Assembly (NCBI GenBank): GCA_965656965.1
Contig: CBFHMK010000008.1
Location: forward strand, 30,970 to 94,969
Length of the DNA: 64,000 bases
DNA from: an uncultured Porticoccaceae bacterium
GTDB taxonomy: Bacteria; Pseudomonadota; Gammaproteobacteria; Pseudomonadales; Porticoccaceae
Direction of reading: 5' to 3'
Below are positions 753-45,959 of this stretch, in pieces. A program made the translations under genes and the position numbers. Position 1 is the first letter of the stretch. Every line of letters begins with the position of its first letter. The notes under the pieces are model-generated. The model worked only from the letters and a program-made list of their open reading frames with translations, was not told the origin of the DNA and ran no database searches.

Positions 753-2141
753 ATGGCCATGTTTGAAAATTTGAGTGATCGCCTTTCCCTGAGTTTAAAA
801 AAGATCTCAGGCAAGGCCAGCCTCAGCGAAAATAATATTAAAGAAACTCTACGCGAAGTGCGCATGGCGCTTCTCGAGGCGGACGTGGCTCTGCCGGTAG
901 TAAAAGACTTTGTGGAGCAGGTCAAGCAGCGTGCTGTGGGCAAAGAGGTGAGTAGCAGCCTGAATCCAGGTCAGCAATTCTTAAAAATTGTACAGGCTGA
1001 GCTAGAAGCGGTGATGGGGGAGCAGAACGAATCCTTAAACCTAGCCGCTCAGCCTCCTGCGATTTTATTAATGGCGGGTCTGCAAGGTGCTGGTAAAACC
1101 ACCTCTGTGGCCAAGCTGTCGCGCTATCTGCAGGAGCGTGAGAAGAAAAAAGTAATGGTGGTGTCTGCTGATGTCTACCGTCCAGCCGCGATTGAGCAGT
1201 TAAAAACTCTGGCAGGCGAGGTGGGTGCCGAGTTTTTCCCCAGTGAGACCAGTCAAAAGCCAGTGGCCATTGTTAAAGATGCCATAGCAGCAGCTAAAAC
1301 CAAATTTGTTGATGTGCTTATTGTGGATACTGCTGGTCGCCTCGCCATAGATGGCGAGATGATGGATGAAATTAAAGATGTTCATCGGGTCGCTAATCCA
1401 GTAGAGACATTATTTGTTATCGACGCCATGATTGGTCAGGATGCGGTTAACACGGCCAAAGCCTTCAATGAAGCACTGCCACTGACTGGCGTAATTCTCA
1501 CGAAGGTTGATGGTGATGCTCGCGGCGGTGCCGCATTATCGGTGAGGCACATTACCGGTAAGCCAATTAAATTTCTGGGTGTGGGTGAGAAAACCGATGC
1601 TCTAGAACCCTTCCACCCTGAGCGCATTGCCTCGCGCATACTCGGCATGGGCGATGTGCTTAGTCTGATTGAAGAAGTTGAGCGCAAAGTCGACAAAAAG
1701 AAAGCCGAGCGTCTGGCGAAAAAGGTCATCAAGGGTAAAGGTTTTGATCTGGAAGATCTGCGCGACCAGTTGCAACAGATGAAAAATATGGGTGGCATGT
1801 CGGGTTTGATGGACAAGTTGCCAGGTATGGGGAATATGGCCCAGATGGCCCAGCAAAAAGATGTCACCAGCCAATTTACTCGTATGGAATGTATTATTGA
1901 CTCTATGACGCCCAAAGAGCGCGCCAATCCTGATATTCTCAACGGCTCGCGCAAGAGGCGAATCACAGCAGGCTCTGGCACCAGTATTCAGGATCTTAAC
2001 CGCCTTCTCAAACAGCACAAGCAAATGGGTAAGATGATGAAGAAAATGAAGGGTAAAGGCATGCAGAATATGATGCGTGGCATGGGCGGCATGATGCCTC
2101 CTAGCGGCGGGTTGCCTCCCGGCGGTTTCCCCAAGTTATAA
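753..2141 (+). CDS. ffh: Signal recognition particle protein Ffh
   Basis: MFENLSDRL start, GLQGAGKTT P-loop, DTAGR, TKVDGDARGG, Met-rich M domain. Confidence 0.99.
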   Translation: MAMFENLSDRLSLSLKKISGKASLSENNIKETLREVRMALLEADVALPVVKDFVEQVKQRAVGKEVSSSLNPGQQFLKIVQAELEAVMGEQNESLNLAAQPPAILLMAGLQGAGKTTSVAKLSRYLQEREKKKVMVVSADVYRPAAIEQLKTLAGEVGAEFFPSETSQKPVAIVKDAIAAAKTKFVDVLIVDTAGRLAIDGEMMDEIKDVHRVANPVETLFVIDAMIGQDAVNTAKAFNEALPLTGVILTKVDGDARGGAALSVRHITGKPIKFLGVGEKTDALEPFHPERIASRILGMGDVLSLIEEVERKVDKKKAERLAKKVIKGKGFDLEDLRDQLQQMKNMGGMSGLMDKLPGMGNMAQMAQQKDVTSQFTRMECIIDSMTPKERANPDILNGSRKRRITAGSGTSIQDLNRLLKQHKQMGKMMKKMKGKGMQNMMRGMGGMMPPSGGLPPGGFPKL

Positions 2142-2362
2142 ATTGATGGATCAGCCCTGAATGGCCAGTAAAACCGGCCTTTTTATGTGGCATGCGAAAG
2201 CTGTGTAATTAGCACCAAAAGTAGTTTCCTTTCATCTTCTTTTGACGTAATATACCGCGCCTTTCGGGGGGCTCCGGCTTTAAATGCGTGGGGTTCGCGA
2301 AATTAGAAATTTAAATGCATCAAGTTTGGCGATTAGGCCGCTTGAACACAGGATTACAGTAA

Positions 2363-2614
2363 ATGGTAACAATTAGATTGGCTCGTGGTGGCGCTAAGAA
2401 ACGTCCCTTTTACCACATCACAGTTTCCGATTCGCGTAATGCACGCGATGCTCGATACATTGAGCGCATTGGCTTTTTTAACCCAGTAGCTCGCGGTGCC
2501 GAAGAGCGCCTGCGTGTAGATCTTGAGCGTGCAACCTATTGGCAGGGTCAGGGAGCTCAGGTTAGCGATCGTGTTTCTGCGCTGTTAAAAGAGGCCGCCA
2601 AAGCTGCAGCCTAA
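2363..2614 (+). CDS. rpsP: 30S ribosomal protein S16
   Basis: [29 protein letters not shown] signature; first gene of the trmD operon. Confidence 0.99.
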
Positions 2615-2639
2615 GACTGTGTAGCCCGGGAGTAGTTCT

Positions 2640-3161
2640 TTGGAAACACTTGTAGTTGGGCGTATTACAGCGGTATTTGGTGTGCGTGGATGGGTTAAAG
2701 TGTTTTCGTACACCGAGCAGTTGGAAGCAGTGTTGGATTTTCAGCCCTGGTGGGTTGCCACCGCGGAAGGCCTCAAACAGATTACTGTTGATGATTGGAA
2801 GCGGCATGGCGACGGACTGGTTGTTCATATCGAAGGTATCGACGACCGAGATATAGCGCGAGACTGGTGTCAGCAGGATATTCGTATTGATAAATCTCTG
2901 CTGCCTGATCTTGATATAAAAGATTTTTATTGGCACCAGCTCGAGGGCTTGGTTGTCATTAGCCATTTCGAAGAGCGAGAGGTTCGTCTGGGAGTGGTGA
3001 AGTCGCTGCTAGAGACCGGTGCCAATGACGTACTGGTGATCAAGGGAGATGCAGAGAGCATAGATCGCGAAGAGCGATTAATCCCCTACGCGGAGCAGTT
3101 TGTTAGCAAGATAGACCTTGAGTCACAGCGGATAGACGTGATGTGGGACCCAGATTTTTAG
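2640..3161 (+). CDS. rimM: Ribosome maturation factor RimM
   Basis: VGRITAVFGVRGWVKV, FYWHQLEGL, LLETGANDVLV motifs; TTG start; operon position. Confidence 0.97.
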   Translation: METLVVGRITAVFGVRGWVKVFSYTEQLEAVLDFQPWWVATAEGLKQITVDDWKRHGDGLVVHIEGIDDRDIARDWCQQDIRIDKSLLPDLDIKDFYWHQLEGLVVISHFEEREVRLGVVKSLLETGANDVLVIKGDAESIDREERLIPYAEQFVSKIDLESQRIDVMWDPDF

Positions 3162-3205
3162 GGTTTAGTGGTCGAAAAATAGTATTGGGCACAGAGGTGA
3201 GATGA

Positions 3206-3958
3206 ATGAAAATTGCATTGATTACCCTGTTCCCAGAGATGTTTGCCGCAGTAGCTGACTACGGAATTAGTGGTCGCGCGGTCAAACAGGGGTTGTTGGA
3301 ATTATCTAGCTTTAATCCCAGAGAGTTCACCCAAGACCGTCATGAGACGGTTGATGACCGACCCTATGGCGGTGGGCCTGGCATGGTGATGATGGTTGAG
3401 CCTCTGCGCAAAGCTATAGCCGCCGCCAGAGAATGGGCAGGCCAAGACGCACTGGTGGTTTATCTTTCCCCGCAGGGCAGGGTTTTAAACCAGCAGGCAG
3501 TGAATAGTTTTGCCAAACAGCAGTCTCTAATACTGATTGCTGGTCGCTACGAAGGTATCGACGAGAGATTGATACAGCTGGAAGTCGATGAGGAATGGTC
3601 CATAGGAGACTATGTTCTCAGTGGTGGAGAACTTCCCGCAATGGTGTTGGTGGACGCTTTGATACGCCAGCTACCGGGAGCGTTGGGCCATCAGGACTCG
3701 GCCGATCAAGACTCCTTTGCCGATGGTCTGTTGGACTGCCCGCACTATACGCGGCCAGAAGACTACCAGGGGCAATCGGTTCCAGAGGTTTTACTGTCTG
3801 GCAACCATGAAAAGATTAGACGTTGGCGTTTGCAGCAGTCTCTAGTGCGAACCCAGCAGAGAAGACCAGAATTGATGGACAGCCTGGCGCTCAATAAAGA
3901 GCAGCAGGCTTTACTTAGGGAAGCGAGTGATGCGCTGGCAGATGATGACAATGGATAA
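3206..3958 (+). CDS. trmD: tRNA (guanine37-N1)-methyltransferase
   Basis: [48 protein letters not shown]. Confidence 0.99.
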
Positions 3959-36769: not shown

Positions 36770-36918
36770 AAAGCACCCTGCTTATTTGCTATGCTTACTC
36801 GTATATGCCAAGCTCCGTCTAGTGATTGTTAGAGTTTTCGGCGGCATTTTGCAGCAGTTACGGGCTAGCATAGCTTGACTGACCCCTTCAGGCCGGAAGT
36901 GAACCAAGGATTGAAATT

Positions 36919-37596
36919 ATGCACGTTCTTATTGTTGATGATCATGCTTTCGTCTGTGTTGGTCTCAAGGCGACATTAAGCGAAGAGTTTGAAAATATTC
37001 AGGTTACCACCACCGACCATGGTGACGATGCACTGACCATTTTGGCAAAAAATGAAATAGATCTAGCCATCGTGGATTTATTTATGCCTGGAGGGGCCGG
37101 TGGCTTTAACTTTATTGAAATGCTTTGCGAAAGCTATCCTAAACTCCCATTAATTGTATTATCGGCGTCAGAAAATCCTGCACATATACGTAAGTGTCTC
37201 GATTTTGGTGTGGCGGGGTTCGTAACCAAATCAGCACCAAAAGATGCCTTGTTTGAGGCCATATCTAAGGCATTGTCAGGTGAGCGATATGTCCCTGAAT
37301 CATTAATAGAATCCATGCCAGAAGTAGCGCGAGTAATCGATGAGGTCGATTCCGGTGCGGACGTTGATATTATTTCAGGTCTGGTCACTGATCGGCAGAT
37401 GGATATATTGCGCAGGATTACTCAGGGGCGCTCCAATAAGCAAATTGCCCGTGAGCTGGATCTCTCTGAAAACACAGTTAAGGTCCATGTTAGTGCAATG
37501 TTAAGAGCATTGGGGCTTAGCAATAGAACTCAAGCGGGAATTCTCGGGCAGAAACTGGGCCTATCAGAACCCTCAGATACTCATAAATACCCCTGA
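36919..37596 (+). CDS. NarL/LuxR-family response regulator
   Basis: LIVDDH, AIVDLFMP phospho-Asp, LSAS, VTKS, LuxR HTH GRSNKQIARELDLSENTVKVHVS. Confidence 0.95.
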   Translation: MHVLIVDDHAFVCVGLKATLSEEFENIQVTTTDHGDDALTILAKNEIDLAIVDLFMPGGAGGFNFIEMLCESYPKLPLIVLSASENPAHIRKCLDFGVAGFVTKSAPKDALFEAISKALSGERYVPESLIESMPEVARVIDEVDSGADVDIISGLVTDRQMDILRRITQGRSNKQIARELDLSENTVKVHVSAMLRALGLSNRTQAGILGQKLGLSEPSDTHKYP

Positions 37597-37627: not shown

Positions 37628-39676
37628 ATGATTAAAAATAGAAATAATATCTGCATTTTTCTGATGCTAATTCCTGCACTATCGGCATCCAGCCTCGCAG
37701 ATATTGTGGTCACAGAGGATGATCTGCTTGCAGATATTCATCTGGTCTCTAGTGTGACCCATATGAATCAGCCTCAAAGCCAGACTCCTGCGGCAGTGAC
37801 CATTATTGATCGAAGAACTATCGATGCCTCTGCAGCTGTTGATGTGTTGGATTTATTTCGTCTAGTGCCAGGATTTCGGACTTACTTCGTTAATGCTAAC
37901 GCACCTAGCTTGAGCTACCATTCTGTGGGTGAAAGTTACCCTCGTCGATTAGAGGTAAAAATCGATGGTCGCTCTGTTTATGAGTCTATTTTTTCATCCG
38001 TAGAGTGGAACACCCTGGGGGTGGAGCTCGAGGATATTGATTATATCGAAATAGTGAGGGGAGGTAATGCCCCCGCGGACGGGAGCAACGCATTTCTAGC
38101 TTCAATTAATATAGTGACTCGGTCACCATTGCTGGACAGTGGCTGGAATCTGCGCGCCCAATTTGGCAGCGATAATATTCGCAATAGGTCGATAACATAT
38201 TCAGGCAAGCTGGGGGAGATCGACCATCGCACTACGTTGCGGCATAGGTCCAATGATGGGTTCAGAGACTTTTCTGGTGAGTATAGAGGTCAGCAGAGAG
38301 ATATTAGTCTTGACGATGGCACAGAGACCATAACCCTGGGTTTTAAGGGACTCTGGACACCCAGAGCATCGGACAGTGTTGAACTGCAGTTTGGTTTCAA
38401 TGACAGTGAGGTGGGTATCGGGGAGAGGGAATATCAGCTGCAAGAGACCGATTACCAATACCAGCACCTTGCCTGGTCCCATAGTGGCAATGGCAGCAAC
38501 CAATATGAGTTGATTGTTTATCATAATAAATTTGATATTAACCAGGCTCAGGACCCGCTAACATTCTATCAAGCATTAACTTTTTTTCCTGAGGGGCCAA
38601 CCAAACTGGCACTATCGCAGCTGCCAGATAAGTTAATTATTGAACCTGAAAGTATTATAGTCTCCGAGCGATGGGACGCGGAATTTAGAGCAAATTTTGA
38701 GGCCACAGACTCTATCCGTGGTGTCTATGGTGTAGCTGCTAGGAAAGACCGGGTTTCGAGCAACACACTTTTTGATATGAGTGGCTCTGCCAGTCAAGAG
38801 TCCTATCGGAGTTACTTAAACCTGGAATGGAGAGCTCTGAATAATATTAGCTTTAATGCTGGATTTATTTCTGAATACCGAAATAAAAGTAGAAACGTCA
38901 ATTCCTACCGAATCGCCAACAACTACCAGGTCTCGGAGGATCACAGTATAAGACTGGCCTATAATCGAGGTTACCGAGCTCCCACGATGTTGGAAAGCCA
39001 GCAGAACACTACTGTTCGTTACAATGAGAACTTAATTCTTGATGCGTCAATACAGTCTGATGCGAATGTTGAACCTGAGTTATTGTCTAGCTCTGAGCTA
39101 GGCTACTCTGGGTTTTTCCTAAACCAAACTCTAAATGTTGATGTGCGTCTATACAGAGAGCGGATGTCTGATCTAATCGGTGAGCGTCGAGAAAGTTATC
39201 CAGACTTCGACGGTCAGCTAAATATTCGCGACAATATAGGTAGCGCTGAAGTAACGGGGATCGAGTGGCAGGTTCAGTACAGGCCCGACAATCACTGGCT
39301 GGTGCACGCTAATTACAGTTATACGGATTTGCAGCAGGACTACCTTTACCGATCTAGTCCAGAGATCGAAATTCGCGATTTTAGTAGGCTTAATCCCCAT
39401 CACCTGGGCGGGCTGTTGATCAGCTATCTAACAGAAGACAACCTTAGCTTTAGCACTATGGTTAATCACCAAAGCAGGATTCACCATTTTTCAGGTGTTG
39501 ATGATGAGGGATATACCCGTGTTGATTTTAAGCTGGCCAAAAAGTGGCGGGCGAAGCAGCGAGATGCAGAATTATCTTTGACCGTACAAAACATTGGCTC
39601 TGACTACAGAGAGTTCTATTTTTTCAACCAGTTTAAAACCAGATATGTTCTGGGTTTGCAAATTGGGTTTCCTTAG
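37628..39676 (+). CDS. TonB-dependent receptor
   Basis: Signal peptide, plug motifs PAAVTII, DLFRLVPG, KIDGRSVY, IEIVRGG..GSNAF..INIVT; C-terminal LGLQIGFP. Confidence 0.92.
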   Translation: MIKNRNNICIFLMLIPALSASSLADIVVTEDDLLADIHLVSSVTHMNQPQSQTPAAVTIIDRRTIDASAAVDVLDLFRLVPGFRTYFVNANAPSLSYHSVGESYPRRLEVKIDGRSVYESIFSSVEWNTLGVELEDIDYIEIVRGGNAPADGSNAFLASINIVTRSPLLDSGWNLRAQFGSDNIRNRSITYSGKLGEIDHRTTLRHRSNDGFRDFSGEYRGQQRDISLDDGTETITLGFKGLWTPRASDSVELQFGFNDSEVGIGEREYQLQETDYQYQHLAWSHSGNGSNQYELIVYHNKFDINQAQDPLTFYQALTFFPEGPTKLALSQLPDKLIIEPESIIVSERWDAEFRANFEATDSIRGVYGVAARKDRVSSNTLFDMSGSASQESYRSYLNLEWRALNNISFNAGFISEYRNKSRNVNSYRIANNYQVSEDHSIRLAYNRGYRAPTMLESQQNTTVRYNENLILDASIQSDANVEPELLSSSELGYSGFFLNQTLNVDVRLYRERMSDLIGERRESYPDFDGQLNIRDNIGSAEVTGIEWQVQYRPDNHWLVHANYSYTDLQQDYLYRSSPEIEIRDFSRLNPHHLGGLLISYLTEDNLSFSTMVNHQSRIHHFSGVDDEGYTRVDFKLAKKWRAKQRDAELSLTVQNIGSDYREFYFFNQFKTRYVLGLQIGFP

Positions 39677-39723: not shown

Positions 39724-40710
39724 ATGACTATATCGGCCATGCAATCAGAATCCTATAGCTCGATTAAATATTGGGCCCTGTTCCTTTGCGTGACTTTTTT
39801 GTTCTATCTGGCACCAGCGATTGCTCTAGAGACTCAAGCCTCCCAGAGTATACTCTTTATTATGAGCAAGGACGCTCCTGCATATTCGCAGGTGGTAGAT
39901 TTTGTTGAGTCAAATTTAAGTGCTACTAGGCGGTCCTATTCTTTTCGTAGGCTGCTAAAAAACGACAGCTCCGAGCTTGCCGAGCGTCTGAAAGATGCCG
40001 ATATTATTGTGACTGTGGGTGCGGGAGCTACCGAAACTGCGATGAAGGAAAAGCCCGTACAGCCGCTTATAGCGGCGTTGATTACCGATAGTGCATTTTC
40101 GGCATTGGCTAATAATTACTATGGTTCTACACCTCAAGCGCTAGCTGCTAGAGTTTCTGTTATCTGTTTGGACCAGCCGGTCCAGCGCAGTATTAAACTG
40201 GCCAAGCTTCTTGTTCCTTCAGCCTCGAGTACCGGTTTGATGCTAGGTCCAGCATCACAGGGTAGGGGGGAAGAGTTTTCTCAGTATGCCTCTGAGGTTG
40301 GTCTAACAGCCAATCTAGTAAATATTGAGTCCAGTGATAACCCTATTTTGGCTATTGAGCCGGTGCTAGCGAAAAGCGATGTGTTTATCCCAGTACCAGA
40401 CAGCAGGCTTATTAATATTGCTTCTGCGAAGTGGATATTGCAGTTGAGTTATAGATATCGAATTCCAGTTATTGCCTATTCAAAGACTTATCTCAATGCA
40501 GGTGCCCTGGCAGCAATTTATTCATCACCAGAAAACGTAGGCCGACAGACCTCAGAGTTAATACTAAATCAGTCGACGGACATCACTAGCAAAGGTGGGG
40601 CTCATATGCCCGCTTATTTCTCAGTTCAGTTTAATACAACCGTTGCCGGGCATTTAAGAATCCCGTTAGAGGAAACGCAGTTTTATATAGATCGGCTGCT
40701 GGATAATTAA
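39724..40710 (+). CDS. Periplasmic ABC-type substrate-binding protein (no permease or ATPase nearby)
   Basis: Signal peptide, IIVTVGAGA, DQPVQR, IPVIAYSKTYLNAGALAAIYSSPE (ABC_sub_bind-like). Confidence 0.8.
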   Translation: MTISAMQSESYSSIKYWALFLCVTFLFYLAPAIALETQASQSILFIMSKDAPAYSQVVDFVESNLSATRRSYSFRRLLKNDSSELAERLKDADIIVTVGAGATETAMKEKPVQPLIAALITDSAFSALANNYYGSTPQALAARVSVICLDQPVQRSIKLAKLLVPSASSTGLMLGPASQGRGEEFSQYASEVGLTANLVNIESSDNPILAIEPVLAKSDVFIPVPDSRLINIASAKWILQLSYRYRIPVIAYSKTYLNAGALAAIYSSPENVGRQTSELILNQSTDITSKGGAHMPAYFSVQFNTTVAGHLRIPLEETQFYIDRLLDN

Positions 40711-40711
40711 G

Positions 40712-42961
40712 ATGCTAAAAAACCGCGACTACAACAGTATTCATACGAGACTTCTTATTACAGGCTTAATCCCCCTAGCCCTGCTAAGTCTAGTCTTGGG
40801 CTGGTATATGATCTCTACGCAGAGCTCTGAACTATTATCCAATATGCATGATACGGGCAGAGTCGCGACTAACCAGATGGCCTCCAACGCAGAGTTTGCT
40901 CTGTACTCCGGTAATGAGGAAATGCTGGAAACATTGGGGTACTCAATTCTGGATATTCCCTCGGTGTCGGGGATCCTTTTTTATAATACTGTTGATGATC
41001 GCACCGTAAGGATTGGCGATATCGACTTTGCGACTCAGCGAATGCCAGACAACTTTGATCTGGGCCCTCCATTTTTTAGAGACAACCAGTGGTATTTTTA
41101 TTCAAAGATCACGCTAAACCGAGGTCTCACCGAAGACTATGATGAATTTGGTCAGGCTGAGTCAGAAGTCATAGGTTGGGTTCTGGTGTCCCTGACTAAT
41201 GAAATCCTGATACAAAAACAGCGGCAGGCTATATTTGGTGCCCTGATCGTAATCAGTCTTGGTTTGTTGGTTGCTGCCTGGATATCCATGCGTATAGGCC
41301 GAAGTATTTCCAAGCCATTAGAAAATTTAACTCAGGTTGTTGAGGTGATGGAGACCGGGGAGTTAGATTCTCTGGCTAGTGAAGAGGGGCCGCTGGAATT
41401 ACGCAAGCTAGCTTACGACATTAACCAATTAGCCACTAGCGTTCGTCAATCTAACGTCCGTATGCAAAGTGAAATCGCTCGCGCTACCGCGCAGTTACAG
41501 ATTACCCTAATCGAACTTGAAGAGGCTATGGAGGCACAGGATCAGTTTTTGGCTCGAATGAGCCATGAGCTTCGTACCCCGCTAACGGCGGTTATTGGGT
41601 TCTCAAGATTGTTGTTCACCGAGCTAGATAGCGGCAAGAGAAATGAGCATTTGCGAGTCATTGAACGCTCATCAACCATGCTACTGACCATGATTGACGA
41701 TATTCTCGAGTTCTCAAAAGCTCATGATGGGGGTTTTACTCTAGAGCAAATCAACTTCGATATACGTCAGTGGATGAGTGACCTGATGGAAATTCACCGC
41801 CAGCGCGCCGAGGAGAAAGATTTACAGTTTACCTACGAAATTTCCTCAGATGTTCCAGAAAAACTCTGTGGTGATCCGGTGCGGTTATCTCAGGTGGTTG
41901 CTAACTTAATCAACAACGCAATCAAGTTTACCGAGAAGGGTTTTGTTCACCTGCAGATAGAAAGTCTGTCCAATAAAGATGGCATTATTAATCTGCAGTG
42001 CTCCGTCTCTGATTCCGGCAAGGGTATTGCCCAAGACAAAATTGCCGGTTTATTTGAACCCTTTTCACAGGAAGACACCTCGATCAATCGGCGCTATGGC
42101 GGCACTGGGTTGGGCCTCTCGATCTGTAAGCGACTGGCGGAGACAATGGGCGGAGACGTGACTATTGAGAGTAGGGAGAGCCATGGCTCTACCATCAGTT
42201 TTACCTGCTGCCTATCTGAGGTTGACCCAGCGTATTCAATGGCAATGGCTGATCAGATCGCTGTTGAGCCGGAACCACTGCTATCGGGATTAATCATATT
42301 AATTGCCGAAGACAACCCTTTTAATCAGAAGCTGATTTTGAAGCTATTAGAGGCCTATGGAGCCACCTGTATGCTCGCCAATAATGGTCAGGAGGCTATA
42401 GAATTGGCAGGCGAATTACATGTTGACGCGGTGCTTATGGATATTCATATGCCAGTGGTTGATGGCGTGACCGCCTGTGAGACTATTATGCAGCAGTCAG
42501 GTGAGAGCCCGCCAATTATCGGGCTCACGGCAGATATTACCCAGGCTGAGCATCAGAGAATGATGTCAGCTGGGGCTATCAGTATTCAATCCAAGCCGCT
42601 TGAGGAAGTAAATCTAGTGAATGCTATTCTCAGTGCTCTAAGTGACCAGCGAGAACTCTCCGAGCAGTCCTCCGAAGGTCTGTTATCTTCAGTTATTCCT
42701 GCACAGGAGCTCAAGGCGGCACTAATTGATAATCTACATTTGCTGGAGCAACAGCTAACTGCTAATGAGAAAGCTAGCCTCCGACAAATCATTCATGATC
42801 TCATGGGCCTTTGCGGGCTATATGGCATGTTTGAGTTGCGTGAGCTAGTGCTGACGTTTAGAGCCACTTACAGCTCTTTGACTGTGGCTGAAAACCTCAA
42901 AAAGGTGCAGATTATCCGTCAACATATTGAAGATTCTTTTAGGGGAAAATCCTCCAACTAA
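40712..42961 (+). CDS. Hybrid sensor histidine kinase, BarA/GacS-like (periplasmic sensor, HAMP, HisKA, HATPase, REC, Hpt)
   Basis: H-box ARMSHELRTPL, N-box NLINNAIKFT, DSGKGI, GGTGLGL, REC LIAEDN...LMDIHMP...KP, C-terminal HDLMG Hpt-like His. N-terminal TM and sensor layout resembles GacS/BarA. Confidence 0.9.
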   Translation: MLKNRDYNSIHTRLLITGLIPLALLSLVLGWYMISTQSSELLSNMHDTGRVATNQMASNAEFALYSGNEEMLETLGYSILDIPSVSGILFYNTVDDRTVRIGDIDFATQRMPDNFDLGPPFFRDNQWYFYSKITLNRGLTEDYDEFGQAESEVIGWVLVSLTNEILIQKQRQAIFGALIVISLGLLVAAWISMRIGRSISKPLENLTQVVEVMETGELDSLASEEGPLELRKLAYDINQLATSVRQSNVRMQSEIARATAQLQITLIELEEAMEAQDQFLARMSHELRTPLTAVIGFSRLLFTELDSGKRNEHLRVIERSSTMLLTMIDDILEFSKAHDGGFTLEQINFDIRQWMSDLMEIHRQRAEEKDLQFTYEISSDVPEKLCGDPVRLSQVVANLINNAIKFTEKGFVHLQIESLSNKDGIINLQCSVSDSGKGIAQDKIAGLFEPFSQEDTSINRRYGGTGLGLSICKRLAETMGGDVTIESRESHGSTISFTCCLSEVDPAYSMAMADQIAVEPEPLLSGLIILIAEDNPFNQKLILKLLEAYGATCMLANNGQEAIELAGELHVDAVLMDIHMPVVDGVTACETIMQQSGESPPIIGLTADITQAEHQRMMSAGAISIQSKPLEEVNLVNAILSALSDQRELSEQSSEGLLSSVIPAQELKAALIDNLHLLEQQLTANEKASLRQIIHDLMGLCGLYGMFELRELVLTFRATYSSLTVAENLKKVQIIRQHIEDSFRGKSSN

Positions 42962-43035
42962 TACTTTTGTATTAACTCGTCAGTGTAATTTATTTATCCC
43001 GAAAAATTCCGTATCTTACAACCTAGCATTGACTC

Positions 43036-43343
43036 CTTGGCATGAAGCTTTGACAGGGACTTTACTGGTAAAAATACACAGACCTACACTGCTGTAAGAA
43101 AGACAACACTGATAAATAGGAAGTTTAAGAGCTAAGTTGACAGGGAGTTGACTTCAAAGGATAGACGCTCAATCAGTTGTTATATTTCGTTTGCTACCAG
43201 TTGTGCGGTATAGACGACTTGGATGTCGTGCGCCATGGAAGGCGCGGGTCAATCTTTAGATTGCTAACACGTTTCGCGTTGTTTTGGGTTCCCCACTTTA
43301 TAACCTTATAGATATCCTAAGCCCAAGGGCTTAGGTTTTTTTT
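43036..43343 (+). ncRNA. Candidate CsrB/RsmY/RsmZ-type CsrA-titrating small RNA (5' end uncertain, 43036-43110)
   Basis: Four hairpins with GGA in the loop (43113-43127, 43134-43154, 43214-43229, 43230-43245), two more GGA motifs (43057, 43159), no ORF in the six-frame track, and a strong intrinsic terminator at the end. Confidence 0.7.
43316..43343 (+). terminator. Rho-independent terminator
   Basis: CCTAAGCC-CAAG-GGCTTAGG-TTTTTTTT: perfect 8-bp stem followed by 8 T. Confidence 0.93.
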
Positions 43344-43472
43344 GCCTGACTATTTCATATTATGACTAGCCTACTTGCTACTGCCCAGAGACCTGTTGAT
43401 AAGAATTACTTTTACTCTCAGGGCTTTAGGCCATAGACTGGAGCCATTCAAGCCTCAAGTCTAAAAGACCCT

Positions 43473-45959
43473 ATGTCAAAAAAAACCAAACAGATAGATC
43501 CTTTCGCCAGTAGAGAAGCCGCTAACTATCAGCGGCCTATCCCAAGTCGTGAGTTTGTGCTCGACTATCTCAGCGAAAGTGTTGGCCCTGTAACCCACGA
43601 AGAGATCTGCGCAGCCCTTCAGTTAACTGATGAAGTTCAGGTCGAAGCAATGCGTCGTCGTCTCAGGGCGATGGAGCGAGATGGCCAGGTGGCCCGCAAT
43701 CGTCGCGGTGGTTATGGCACCTTGGATAAACTAAATTTGGTAAAGGGAAGAGTGATAGGCCATCCCGAAGGCTATGGGTTTGTCTCGCCAGTACAGGGTG
43801 ATGGGCAGGATATTTATCTCTCTAGTGCGCAGATGAGGCGTGTTTTTGATGGCGATATTGTGCTTGTCAGAATTGCCGGATGGGATCGCCGTGGGCGACC
43901 TGAGGGTAGTTTGGTGGATGTGGTTGAGCGCAAAACCACACAGCTAGTCGGGCGCTTTTTCTGTGAAAGCGGCATCAATTTTGTACGCCCTGATAATCCG
44001 CGTATTAGCCAAGATATCCTGATACCTGCAGATAAGCGCTTAAATGCTACCTCGGGGCAGATAGTGGTAGTGGAAATATCCGAGCCACCATCCCGTAATA
44101 GTCTGCCCGTCGGTTATATTTCTGAGGTGCTGGGCGAGCATCTGGATCCCGGCCTAGAAATTGATATGTCTATCCGCAACTACGGCATTCCCCATCAATG
44201 GAATGATCAGGTGTTGGAGGAAACAGCTGCAATCCCGGATCAGGTTGAGGACAGCGGTCTGCGAGTGGACTTACGCAATACACCGCTGATTACCATTGAT
44301 GGCGAAGATGCTCGAGACTTTGATGATGCGGTTTACTGCCAGCCCAAACCCCGAGGAGGCTGGTCTCTAATTGTTGCTATCGCGGATGTATCTCATTATG
44401 TCAGCGCGGGCTCAGCGCTGGATACCGAGGCCTTCCATCGGGGCAACTCCGTATATTTCCCCAATCACGTAGTACCCATGCTGCCAGAAAAGCTTTCCAA
44501 TGGCCTGTGCTCGTTAAATCCCGCTGAAGATCGCCTCTGTATGGTTTGTGAGATGCAGATCAGTGCCGAGGGTGATGTAAGCCGCTACCAATTTTATGAA
44601 GGCATAATGCACTCTCACGCCAGAACCACCTACACTCAGGTGGCGCAAATTATTGCAGATAGGGTTCAGGAGAATCGCTCTGGTGTGCGCAAACAGTTCT
44701 CCTCCATTTTGCCCCAGGTTGATGCGCTGCATGATTTATACAAAGTACTGCACAGGCGCAGAACCAAACGGGGAGCCATTGACTTTGATAGCCAAGAAAC
44801 CCGAATTCTCTTCGATAGTCAGCGCAAAATTAGTCAGATTATTCCCGTTGATCGTACCGAGGCCCATCGTCTAATTGAAGAGTGTATGCTCTGCGCTAAT
44901 GTCTGTGCTGCTGAGTTTTTAGAAAAAGTTAAAATCCCCGCTTTGTTTCGTGTCCATGAAGGCCCCAGCGAAGAGAGGCTGTCCTCTGTTCGTGACTTTC
45001 TGGGTGAGCTTGGTATTGGCCTGGGGGGTGGAGATGACCCTCAACCCGAAGACTATCAGCGTGTCCTGCGGGCTGTAAAAGGCCGTGATGATGCTGCGAT
45101 TATTCAGTCAGTCATGCTGCGTTCGATGAGCCAGGCTATGTATCAGCCGGAGAATATGGGACATTTCGGACTAGCATTTGATGCCTATAGCCACTTTACA
45201 TCACCGATACGTCGCTATGCAGATCTGCTTGTTCACAGAGCCATTCGAAGTGTTATAAGGAGTAAGAAAAAGACCTCTGCAGTGCAGCGGGTGCCTGGGG
45301 CGACGCTGCTCGAACTACAAACTATTTATCCCTATGACCTGGGTCGCCTAGACGAGACTGGCGAGCATCTCTCGGTCACCGAGCGTCGTGCCGACGAGGC
45401 GACTAGGGACGTGGTCAACTGGCTCAAGTGCGAATATCTCATGGATAGAGTGGGCGAACAGTATTCTGGCGTCGTCAGTGCTGTGACTGGTTTTGGTTTG
45501 TTTGTCATGCTTGATGATCTCTATGTCGAGGGGTTAATACATGTTACTGGGCTACCCAAAGATTACTATTATCATGAAGCCTCCCACCACCGTATGGTGG
45601 GCGAACGTACCGGGCGAGTGTTTCGACTGGGTCAGAAGCTGCGGGTCAAAGTAGTTCGTGTTAATTTAGAAGAGCGTAAAATAGACTTTGAACTGCTGGA
45701 TGGCACCAACTCAGAAACTCCCGGCAAAGCATCTAAAGGGCGCGGCAAGAGTGGTGGTGGCGAGAGGCCTCGAGTGTCTTCGAGAGCAGCCGAAATGGCA
45801 TCAGAGCATGAGAAAAAACGCAGTACTCGTGGCAAGGGAGCCAATAAGAAAGCTGCTGCCGGCAAGAAAAAGCCGATTTCTAAAAGGCGCAAAAACAAAC
45901 CCGCGTCAGGGGCTGCTGGAAAATCCTCTGTGGGTAAAAGAAAAAAGACTCGCAGTTAA
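43473..45959 (+). CDS. rnr: Ribonuclease R
   Basis: GHPEGYGF cold-shock domain, ITIDGEDARDFDDAV, HFTSPIRRYADL, S1 domain, basic C-terminal tail. Confidence 0.98.
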   Translation: MSKKTKQIDPFASREAANYQRPIPSREFVLDYLSESVGPVTHEEICAALQLTDEVQVEAMRRRLRAMERDGQVARNRRGGYGTLDKLNLVKGRVIGHPEGYGFVSPVQGDGQDIYLSSAQMRRVFDGDIVLVRIAGWDRRGRPEGSLVDVVERKTTQLVGRFFCESGINFVRPDNPRISQDILIPADKRLNATSGQIVVVEISEPPSRNSLPVGYISEVLGEHLDPGLEIDMSIRNYGIPHQWNDQVLEETAAIPDQVEDSGLRVDLRNTPLITIDGEDARDFDDAVYCQPKPRGGWSLIVAIADVSHYVSAGSALDTEAFHRGNSVYFPNHVVPMLPEKLSNGLCSLNPAEDRLCMVCEMQISAEGDVSRYQFYEGIMHSHARTTYTQVAQIIADRVQENRSGVRKQFSSILPQVDALHDLYKVLHRRRTKRGAIDFDSQETRILFDSQRKISQIIPVDRTEAHRLIEECMLCANVCAAEFLEKVKIPALFRVHEGPSEERLSSVRDFLGELGIGLGGGDDPQPEDYQRVLRAVKGRDDAAIIQSVMLRSMSQAMYQPENMGHFGLAFDAYSHFTSPIRRYADLLVHRAIRSVIRSKKKTSAVQRVPGATLLELQTIYPYDLGRLDETGEHLSVTERRADEATRDVVNWLKCEYLMDRVGEQYSGVVSAVTGFGLFVMLDDLYVEGLIHVTGLPKDYYYHEASHHRMVGERTGRVFRLGQKLRVKVVRVNLEERKIDFELLDGTNSETPGKASKGRGKSGGGERPRVSSRAAEMASEHEKKRSTRGKGANKKAAAGKKKPISKRRKNKPASGAAGKSSVGKRKKTRS

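Follow-up and report, generated by a model that had tools for sequence, protein, structure and literature searches.

Does the gap of 511 nt that separates a hybrid sensor kinase gene (40712–42961, + strand) from rnr (43473–45959, + strand) encode something that annotation has missed? We studied this gap within a window of 64 000 nucleotides (the whole stretch of DNA analysed, whose coordinates are used below) from an uncultured Porticoccaceae bacterium. It carries a conserved, structured, abundantly expressed and unannotated small RNA (sRNA) on the + strand. That this sRNA is real and also represents a new family of the Csr/Rsm type, outside Rfam and predicted to titrate CsrA/RsmA, is in our judgement rather probable. 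A previous sequence-only reading had proposed an unannotated CsrB/RsmY-like sRNA here, and a sequence check located all of the hairpins, GGA motifs, half-sites and the terminator where that reading had placed them. The existence of an unannotated, terminated + strand RNA between the kinase gene and rnr is now borne out by homologues, covariation and RNA contigs. It is the comparison with relatives that establishes the feature as real. The GGA count by itself is unremarkable: six GGA in 233 nt are matched by 8% of same-size + strand windows, and four A.GGA by 0.8%.

The host belongs to the SAR92 clade (Porticoccaceae; Cellvibrionales/Pseudomonadales; Gammaproteobacteria). Its RNase R has 82–85% identity to those of Porticoccaceae metagenome-assembled genomes and SAR92 strain H921, and 74% identity to that of HTCC2207. 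In coastal seawater SAR92 ranks with the most abundant cultivable clades of oligotrophic Gammaproteobacteria, and to our knowledge almost nothing is known of its post-transcriptional regulation; a literature search returned nothing tying SAR92, HTCC2207, Porticoccaceae or Cellvibrionales to CsrA, Rsm or small RNA.

Conservation and fold of the RNA

Seventeen homologues were collected from SAR92/Porticoccaceae genomes and marine metagenomes; the first alignment (A1) held 13 sequences. The first ~297 nt of the gap have 79–88% identity in close relatives and 67–70% in more distant SAR92 genomes, and the following ~145 nt are unconserved. Scanning metagenomes for an invariant 14-base pattern gave 120 matches, five of them true homologues and the rest mostly chance occurrences. 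The window itself contains no second copy of the sRNA. The RNA is divided as follows:

43024..43343, + strand: sRNA transcript of probably ~320 nt, from RNA contigs, with a predicted 5' end; core (43028–43253), variable spacer and terminator
43254..43315, + strand: variable spacer from core to terminator; similarity ends at ~43258; transcribed in relatives
43316..43343, + strand: intrinsic terminator CCTAAGCC-CAAG-GGCTTAGG followed by U8, from the terminator scan

The terminator stem (43316–43335, followed by T8) begins 355 nt past the kinase stop (42961), the distance claimed previously, and the terminator scan found it on the + strand. Each homologue has its own, different hairpin and T-run, 45–150 nt past the core.

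Two short open reading frames in the mechanical reading-frame list, 42927–43097 and 43177–43311, might suggest that the conserved sequence encodes a small protein. The alignment contains indels of 1, 2 and 4 nt and the reading frame is unconserved; furthermore, frame 43177–43311 crosses the unconserved spacer, and conservation follows the paired stems and loops. We give this explanation practically no credence.

RNAalifold, run on 13 and then on 17 sequences, gave one closed multi-helix fold. The consensus has 51 pairs, including an extra 4-bp helix (43129–43132 with 43167–43170), and 96.1% of its cells are paired, compared with 27–44% once the 3' partners are slid by one to three columns. Compensatory changes occur at 15 pairs, spread over eight of the ten helices, and none of 500 shuffles reached the covariation score; many of these changes split two sub-clades, which leaves few independent events per pair. 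The long-range helices and one further hairpin of the consensus are listed here:

43028..43035, + strand: 5' strand of the closing helix P1, ATTGACTC; pairs with 43246–43253; 97.8% of cells paired, two compensatory pairs
43246..43253, + strand: 3' strand of P1, GGGTCAAT, from the RNAalifold consensus
43066..43070, + strand: 5' strand of helix P2, TGGTA; partner TACCA at 43192–43196; 98.8% paired, one pair AU:9 GC:6
43108..43112, + strand: 5' strand of helix P3, ACTGA; partner TCAGT at 43173–43177; encloses GGA sites 2–4; two compensatory pairs (GC:10/AU:7 and AU:7/GC:7)
43075..43096, + strand: hairpin (helix 4) with an invariant 7-nt loop, ACCUACA (43082–43088); ACAGNCCTACACTGC invariant

P1 alters one detail of the sequence-only reading. 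The letters of its hairpin CAATC/TTTA/GATTG are present at 43250–43263, and the local hairpin is not conserved; it is replaced by the closing helix, in which GGGTCAAT (43246–43253) pairs with ATTGACTC (43028–43035).

Read as a + strand RNA, 96.9% of cells pair, and read as a − strand RNA 84.8%; there are 84 G-U cells and nine A-C cells. These G-U/A-C counts, and a terminator U-run that is found on the + strand only, place the RNA on the + strand. A − strand RNA, with a z-score (−2.7) better than that of the + strand, was ruled out by the same counts and by the terminator, and its better z-score reflects base composition.

The six GGA triplets start at 43057, 43119, 43144, 43159, 43221 and 43237. 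None of them is paired in the consensus: four occupy hairpin loops and two lie in single-stranded linkers. They are of the A/U-N-GGA type:

43053..43059, + strand: GGA site 1, ACAGGGA, single-stranded; GGA in 17 of 17 homologues
43113..43127, + strand: GGA site 2, hairpin TAAAT/AGGAA/GTTTA with loop AGGAA; stem covaries (AU:9/GC:6); GGA in 15 of 17
43134..43154, + strand: GGA site 3, hairpin AAGTTGAC/AGGGA/GTTGACTT with loop AGGGA; GACAGGGAGTT invariant; two G-U pairs mark the + strand
43156..43161, + strand: GGA site 4, AAAGGA, unpaired, 15 nt past site 3; conserved, two apparent losses being alignment shifts
43214..43229, + strand: GGA site 5, hairpin ACGAC/UUGGAU/GUCGU (helix 9); GGA in 16 of 17; loop UAGGAA in most relatives
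43230..43245, + strand: GGA site 6, hairpin GCGCC/AUGGAA/GGCGC (helix 10); compensatory pair GC:10/AU:7; GGA in 17 of 17

Each GGA is kept in 12–13 of 13 homologues and in nearly all of the 17. Identity over the 18 GGA columns is 0.977, versus 0.707 in the other unpaired columns (permutation p < 1e-5). The flanking stems covary; that of site 3 (helix 8) is 98.3% paired, with three compensatory pairs and one invariant G-U pair. Several sites are near the CsrA consensus, for example ACAGGGA, and site 6 reads CCAAGGAUGG in relatives, close to the consensus obtained for CsrA by systematic evolution of ligands by exponential enrichment. The triplets form three close pairs, with spacings of 25, 15 and 16 nt; a GGA spacing of 15–25 nt suits dual-site binding by a CsrA dimer. 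All four hairpins (in DNA letters, sites 5 and 6 are ACGAC/TTGGAT/GTCGT and GCGCC/ATGGAA/GGCGC), the two G-U pairs and both extra motifs, ACAGGGA and AAAGGA, had been described exactly, and the covarying stems and conserved, unpaired GGA uphold the earlier view of GGA-in-loop hairpins as Csr/Rsm anatomy.

Transcript and promoter region

Expression was read from assembled RNA contigs, which are strandless, come from mixed-strain samples and leave transcript ends unmapped; contig ends are unusable as transcript ends because they match junctions of conserved and variable sequence. The word depth over 43048–43213 in four metatranscriptomes was 58–89, 70, 10 and 30, and that of the kinase gene and rnr was 0–10 and 0–9, respectively. 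A depth of 58–89 over the RNA compares with 4–10 in the flanking genes, and the RNA stood at least ~8-fold above them. Three further RNA-seq runs each yielded a single contig in a 1-kb stretch, with the kinase gene and rnr uncovered: one of 285 nt (X29; 43023–43279 plus ~27 nt more, to ~43306), one of 210 nt (X31; 43043–43251) and one of 340 nt (X42; 43023–43239, extended at both ends). Each of these runs thus gave one discrete contig, of 210–340 nt, for the intergenic region only. The homologue in strain H921 (L003) was recovered in four other runs, whose contigs reach ~80 nt past the core toward the terminator, with the kinase gene uncovered in three of the four. DNA contamination cannot explain this coverage pattern. 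The RNA recurs in metatranscriptomes of many separate studies, and in those examined it far out-covers the kinase gene and rnr.

Positions 3551–3814 of L003 also appear in oligo-dT-primed, eukaryote-targeted libraries (X49, X52, X55 and X57). Recovery of the RNA from such libraries points to very high abundance, to polyadenylation, or to internal priming at an A-rich stretch.

Three conserved elements lie upstream of the RNA:

42959..42974, no strand assigned: 16-bp palindrome TAATAC-N4-GTATTA, consensus TARTMC-N4-GTAYTA; in all homologues and in a sister clade
42978..42989, no strand assigned: invariant box CGTCAGTGTAAT, columns 20–31 of A1, at a fixed 22 nt from the -10-like hexamer
43012..43017, + strand: -10-like hexamer TATCTT; T1, A2 and T6 kept in 13 of 13 A1 sequences

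The palindrome overlaps the kinase stop codon, ~50–65 bp upstream of the probable transcription start. Its substitutions are non-compensatory; it is therefore a DNA site, not an RNA hairpin, and putatively the site of a dimeric helix-turn-helix regulator. Elsewhere in the window there is no copy of the palindrome, even with one mismatch allowed, and no second CGTCAGTGTAAT box. The hexamer reads TATTAT, TAACTT or TAATCT in relatives. The promoter scan gave no recognisable -35 and no + strand consensus-promoter match.

Other promoter elements that had been suggested fare less well, although the letters are there. TAGCAT (43024–43029) is a poorer -10 than TATCTT and is not likewise conserved. CTTACA (43015–43020) overlaps the -10 and is unconserved, and is not a promoter half-site; CCTACA-N4-TGTAAG (43083–43098) lies inside the RNA, where it supplies both the loop and the 3' side of a conserved hairpin, and is not a promoter element. 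The proposed RNA start at 43036 is also not borne out: transcription probably starts near 43024, 3–4 nt before P1.

Certain contigs (X25 record 2, X28 record 20, X42 and X51 record 6) join the RNA to the kinase 3' end or the promoter region, and such upstream continuation shows that low-level kinase read-through occurs. Together with the lack of a -35 and of a match in the consensus promoter scan, this would be expected if the RNA had no promoter of its own and were the 3' untranslated region of the kinase mRNA, as a processed fragment or read-through, with the upstream boxes serving something else. However, the RNA was assembled with the kinase gene uncovered in three runs for the window copy and in three of the four L003 runs, the depth ratio elsewhere is ~8-fold or more, and the invariant box and the palindrome are followed, at a fixed spacing, by a conserved -10 hexamer (T1, A2 and T6). 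We regard such an origin as distinctly unlikely. It concerns only where the RNA comes from, and a processed 3' untranslated region could be compatible with a role as a CsrA sponge.

In all homologues rnr is the next gene after the RNA and has the same orientation, an arrangement that would suit a cis-acting leader or attenuator of rnr. However, between the RNA and rnr stand a strong terminator and another ~130 nt. The rnr gene is preceded by a conserved promoter-like leader of its own (TTTACT...CATAGACT) and assembles into contigs distinct from those of the RNA, at much lower depth; relatives with rplS or the kinase gene directly upstream of rnr lack the RNA and have rnr intact. The idea is thus largely refuted and very improbable.

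The rnr leader occupies 43399–43440 of the window, with promoter-like TTTACT ... CATAGACT and the consensus TTTCTTTTACTC-N-ATAAGACATAGACT. It is found upstream of rnr in all SAR92 loci, whichever gene precedes.

Predicted titration of CsrA

The RNA folds as a closed structure displaying six GGA motifs. In the reading that we favour, each pair of these would bind one CsrA/RsmA dimer, and the RNA, if produced in quantity, would titrate CsrA off mRNAs in the manner of CsrB, RsmY and RsmZ. Its promoter, with a good -10 (TATCTT) and no -35, would probably be activated via the palindrome TAATAC-N4-GTATTA and the CGTCAGTGTAAT box; the activator would probably be the NarL-type regulator (36919..37596) of the adjacent BarA-like two-component system, and transcription would end at the intrinsic terminator. 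The anatomy and abundance of the RNA fit this sponge model, as do selection on its GGA, amplification of its modules, its terminator and its activator-type promoter, and we hold the model to be probably correct. Features of the Csr/Rsm class are present: exposed GGA motifs, GGA under purifying selection with covarying stems, and a discrete abundant transcript with an intrinsic terminator.

Two homologues have expanded the RNA. In L009 (3046–3925) a five-GGA 3' module is present in four tandem copies, giving 21 GGA, and in L050 (3390–3925) the GGA-bearing module is present in two tandem copies; each array has one promoter region before it and one terminator after it. Amplification of precisely the GGA-bearing part fits what is expected of a titrating RNA, and the number of sites in L009 reaches that of CsrB.

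Several observations weigh against this model. Within the single sequence, GGA density is only ~2x background and the + strand folding energy is at the level of shuffled sequence (z = −0.14). Neither the window nor eight relatives gave an Rfam match at gathering score; the families tested included CsrB (RF00018), CsrC (RF00084), PrrB_RsmZ (RF00166), RsmY (RF00195) and RsmX, and at E <= 10 the gap gave three spurious matches only (mir-879, FTX_4 and SSRC8_2). That no Csr/Rsm model would detect the RNA had been predicted in the sequence-only reading, as had the absence of a full GacA box: neither the canonical GacA/UvrY box TGTAAG-N6-CTTACA nor the 18-bp UvrY palindrome is present, and there are isolated half-site look-alikes only. 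By NCBIfam, the regulator is not a GacA orthologue, its GacA score being not above those for NarL or ErdR. No csrA was found by tblastn in the window or in 200 fetched loci; an RsmA query against 5.8 billion proteins returned Pseudomonas aeruginosa variants only, which is uninformative for SAR92. The 5' end of the RNA is a predicted one, and some contigs run on past it into the promoter region or the kinase gene. Finally, the most invariant stretch of the RNA is a loop that has no GGA, ACCUACA, and may point to a further function or a different one, and the RNA of a sister clade has only three to five GGA, two loop GGA having become GGGUA and AGAU.

The ACCUACA loop could act as a seed for base pairing or contact a protein. 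If it (43082–43088) were the working part, the RNA would be a trans-acting base-pairing sRNA, and the GGA loops would play a secondary part or be there for another protein. In keeping with this, ACAGNCCTACACTGC is the longest invariant stretch, its C.UACAC core is kept in the sister clade despite several GGA losses, and the terminator has a U-tail like those of Hfq-dependent sRNAs. However, six separate GGA triplets are as invariant as the loop, L009 and L050 duplicate the GGA-bearing module and not the loop-bearing 5' domain, and the complement GTGTAGG occurs in the window at chance frequency, with no occurrence at a start codon. We consider a base-pairing function unlikely and prefer CsrA titration.

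The sister clade (L016–L018, L020 and L049) has the same palindrome, the same CGTCAGTGTAAT box, the 22-nt spacing and a -10-like hexamer after the same kinase, followed by a diverged RNA. Model R1, built from alignment A2, aligns this RNA full-length (E ~1e-6 to 1e-4), and the closing helix and the C.UACAC counterpart of the ACCUACA loop are retained. With fewer GGA in the same fold, the fold therefore predates the full GGA set, a caveat for a pure sponge, and the sponge signature is strongest in the sub-clade of the window.

In the sister clade, at ~3870–3915, a conserved UUAUUUACUCCCUCUUU stretch lies just before the terminator and includes an anti-Shine-Dalgarno-like CUCCCUC, which could be a base-pairing seed.

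Genomic setting and comparison with known families

In every homologue the sRNA comes immediately after the kinase gene, which in the window is the last of a cluster of four genes:

36919..37596, + strand: NarL/LuxR-type response regulator with a REC domain and a GerE helix-turn-helix domain (Pfam Response_reg and GerE); first gene of the cluster
37628..39676, + strand: TonB-dependent receptor (Pfam Plug and TonB_dep_Rec_b-barrel); synteny conserved
39724..40710, + strand: periplasmic substrate-binding protein (ABC_sub_bind, Pfam PF04392), adjoining the kinase gene on its 5' side; synteny conserved
40712..42961, + strand: BarA/GacS-like hybrid kinase, HAMP-HisKA-HATPase-REC with a weak C-terminal HPt domain (Pfam)

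The best NCBIfam match of the kinase is BarA, at 422.7 bits (cut-off 890), with residues 9–504 aligned to profile positions 5–521, so that the match spans the N-terminus and the catalytic domain. Its HPt match is weak (E = 0.003), its length is 749 amino acids versus ~920 for BarA, and the solved proteins nearest to it in sequence are unnamed histidine or hybrid kinases, followed by RetS. The regulator, which has 81–83% identity in L124/L161, scores 121.7 bits for ErdR, 109.9 for NarL and 81.7 for UvrY/GacA (cut-off 280), all below cut-off. The order regulator, TonB receptor, binding protein, kinase, RNA and rnr is kept in relatives and metagenome contigs. In L012, L019 and L039 (~930–3870) the regulator gene is directly upstream of the kinase gene, with neither the TonB receptor nor the binding protein in between, and the two are therefore a cognate pair. 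In these three loci the rnr leader comes straight after the kinase gene and the sRNA is missing from this position, being elsewhere or absent.

Two short sequences near the regulator gene resemble parts of this system. On its 5' side, CTAGCAT...TTGACT (36865–36880) resembles the 5' end of the sRNA, CTAGCATTGACT (43023–43034), a likeness that could be due to chance. The ribosome-binding site CCAAGGAUUG has a GGA (36908–36910) 9 nt before the AUG and is like a CsrA site; this too could be chance, and such a site would permit feedback.

In L006, L021 and L053, rnr directly follows rimM-trmD-rplS. This identifies 4450–43400 of the window (~39 kb) as a variable island, whose right edge is occupied by the RNA. 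The genes of this exopolysaccharide island encode a sugar transferase, a glycosyltransferase of the WecG/TagA family that carries a STAS domain, an exosortase EpsH/DUF3485 protein and a large TPR protein, and they include the regulator, receptor, binding protein and kinase cluster with the sRNA. In L021 (3777–3900) rplS lies upstream of rnr, yet the last ~90 nt of the sister-clade RNA and its terminator are kept; this fragment looks like a remnant of island loss.

A more specific proposal, which we offer only tentatively and regard as doubtful, is that a self-contained module on the island leads from sensor to sponge, with the RNA as its dedicated output. The TonB receptor and the binding protein would feed the BarA-like kinase and the NarL-type regulator; by binding the non-canonical palindrome, this regulator would turn on the CsrA-titrating RNA; and the RNA would control the neighbouring PEP-CTERM/exosortase exopolysaccharide genes and thereby a free-living versus particle-attached lifestyle in this abundant marine clade. 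The number of modules (one, two or four) would tune sponge capacity among strains.

Model R1 can be used to annotate this RNA in marine genomes and metatranscriptomes. If the RNA is indeed a CsrA sponge, it offers a way into the clade's global switch of carbon use and lifestyle, and adds a Csr/Rsm family that current covariance models miss, with the RNA physically linked to the two-component system presumed to drive it.

Among known families, RsmY, RsmZ and RsmX of Pseudomonas, from a related gammaproteobacterial order, likewise combine short ANGGA-loop hairpins with single-stranded GGA at sites 15–25 nt apart, a Rho-independent terminator, a -10 without a -35, and a conserved upstream palindrome. 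In contrast, the SAR92 RNA is ~320 nt long rather than 110–130 nt, has no detectable sequence or covariance-model similarity to them, encloses its sites by the long-range helices P1–P3, is linked to a sensor kinase gene, and has the palindrome TAATAC-N4-GTATTA instead of TGTAAG-N6-CTTACA. CsrB and CsrC of enterobacteria and CsrB1–4 of Vibrio are of a similar size class (~250–370 nt) and have repeated GGA stem-loops; a BarA-type two-component system presumably drives transcription in both cases, and the four-module RNA of L009, with 21 GGA, equals CsrB in number of sites. Unlike CsrB and CsrC, the window RNA has six sites in one closed fold rather than a string of imperfect repeats, has no UvrY box, and does not match RF00018 or RF00084. 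CrcZ, the Hfq/Crc sponge 3' of cbrB in Pseudomonas, differs in its A-rich (AANAANAA) motifs and sigma-54 promoter; neither conserved A-rich repeats nor a GG-N10-GC element was seen in A1 or A2 when read by eye. Nevertheless, CrcZ offers a parallel in arrangement, in that a putative protein-titrating RNA lies directly downstream of the two-component system presumed to drive it.

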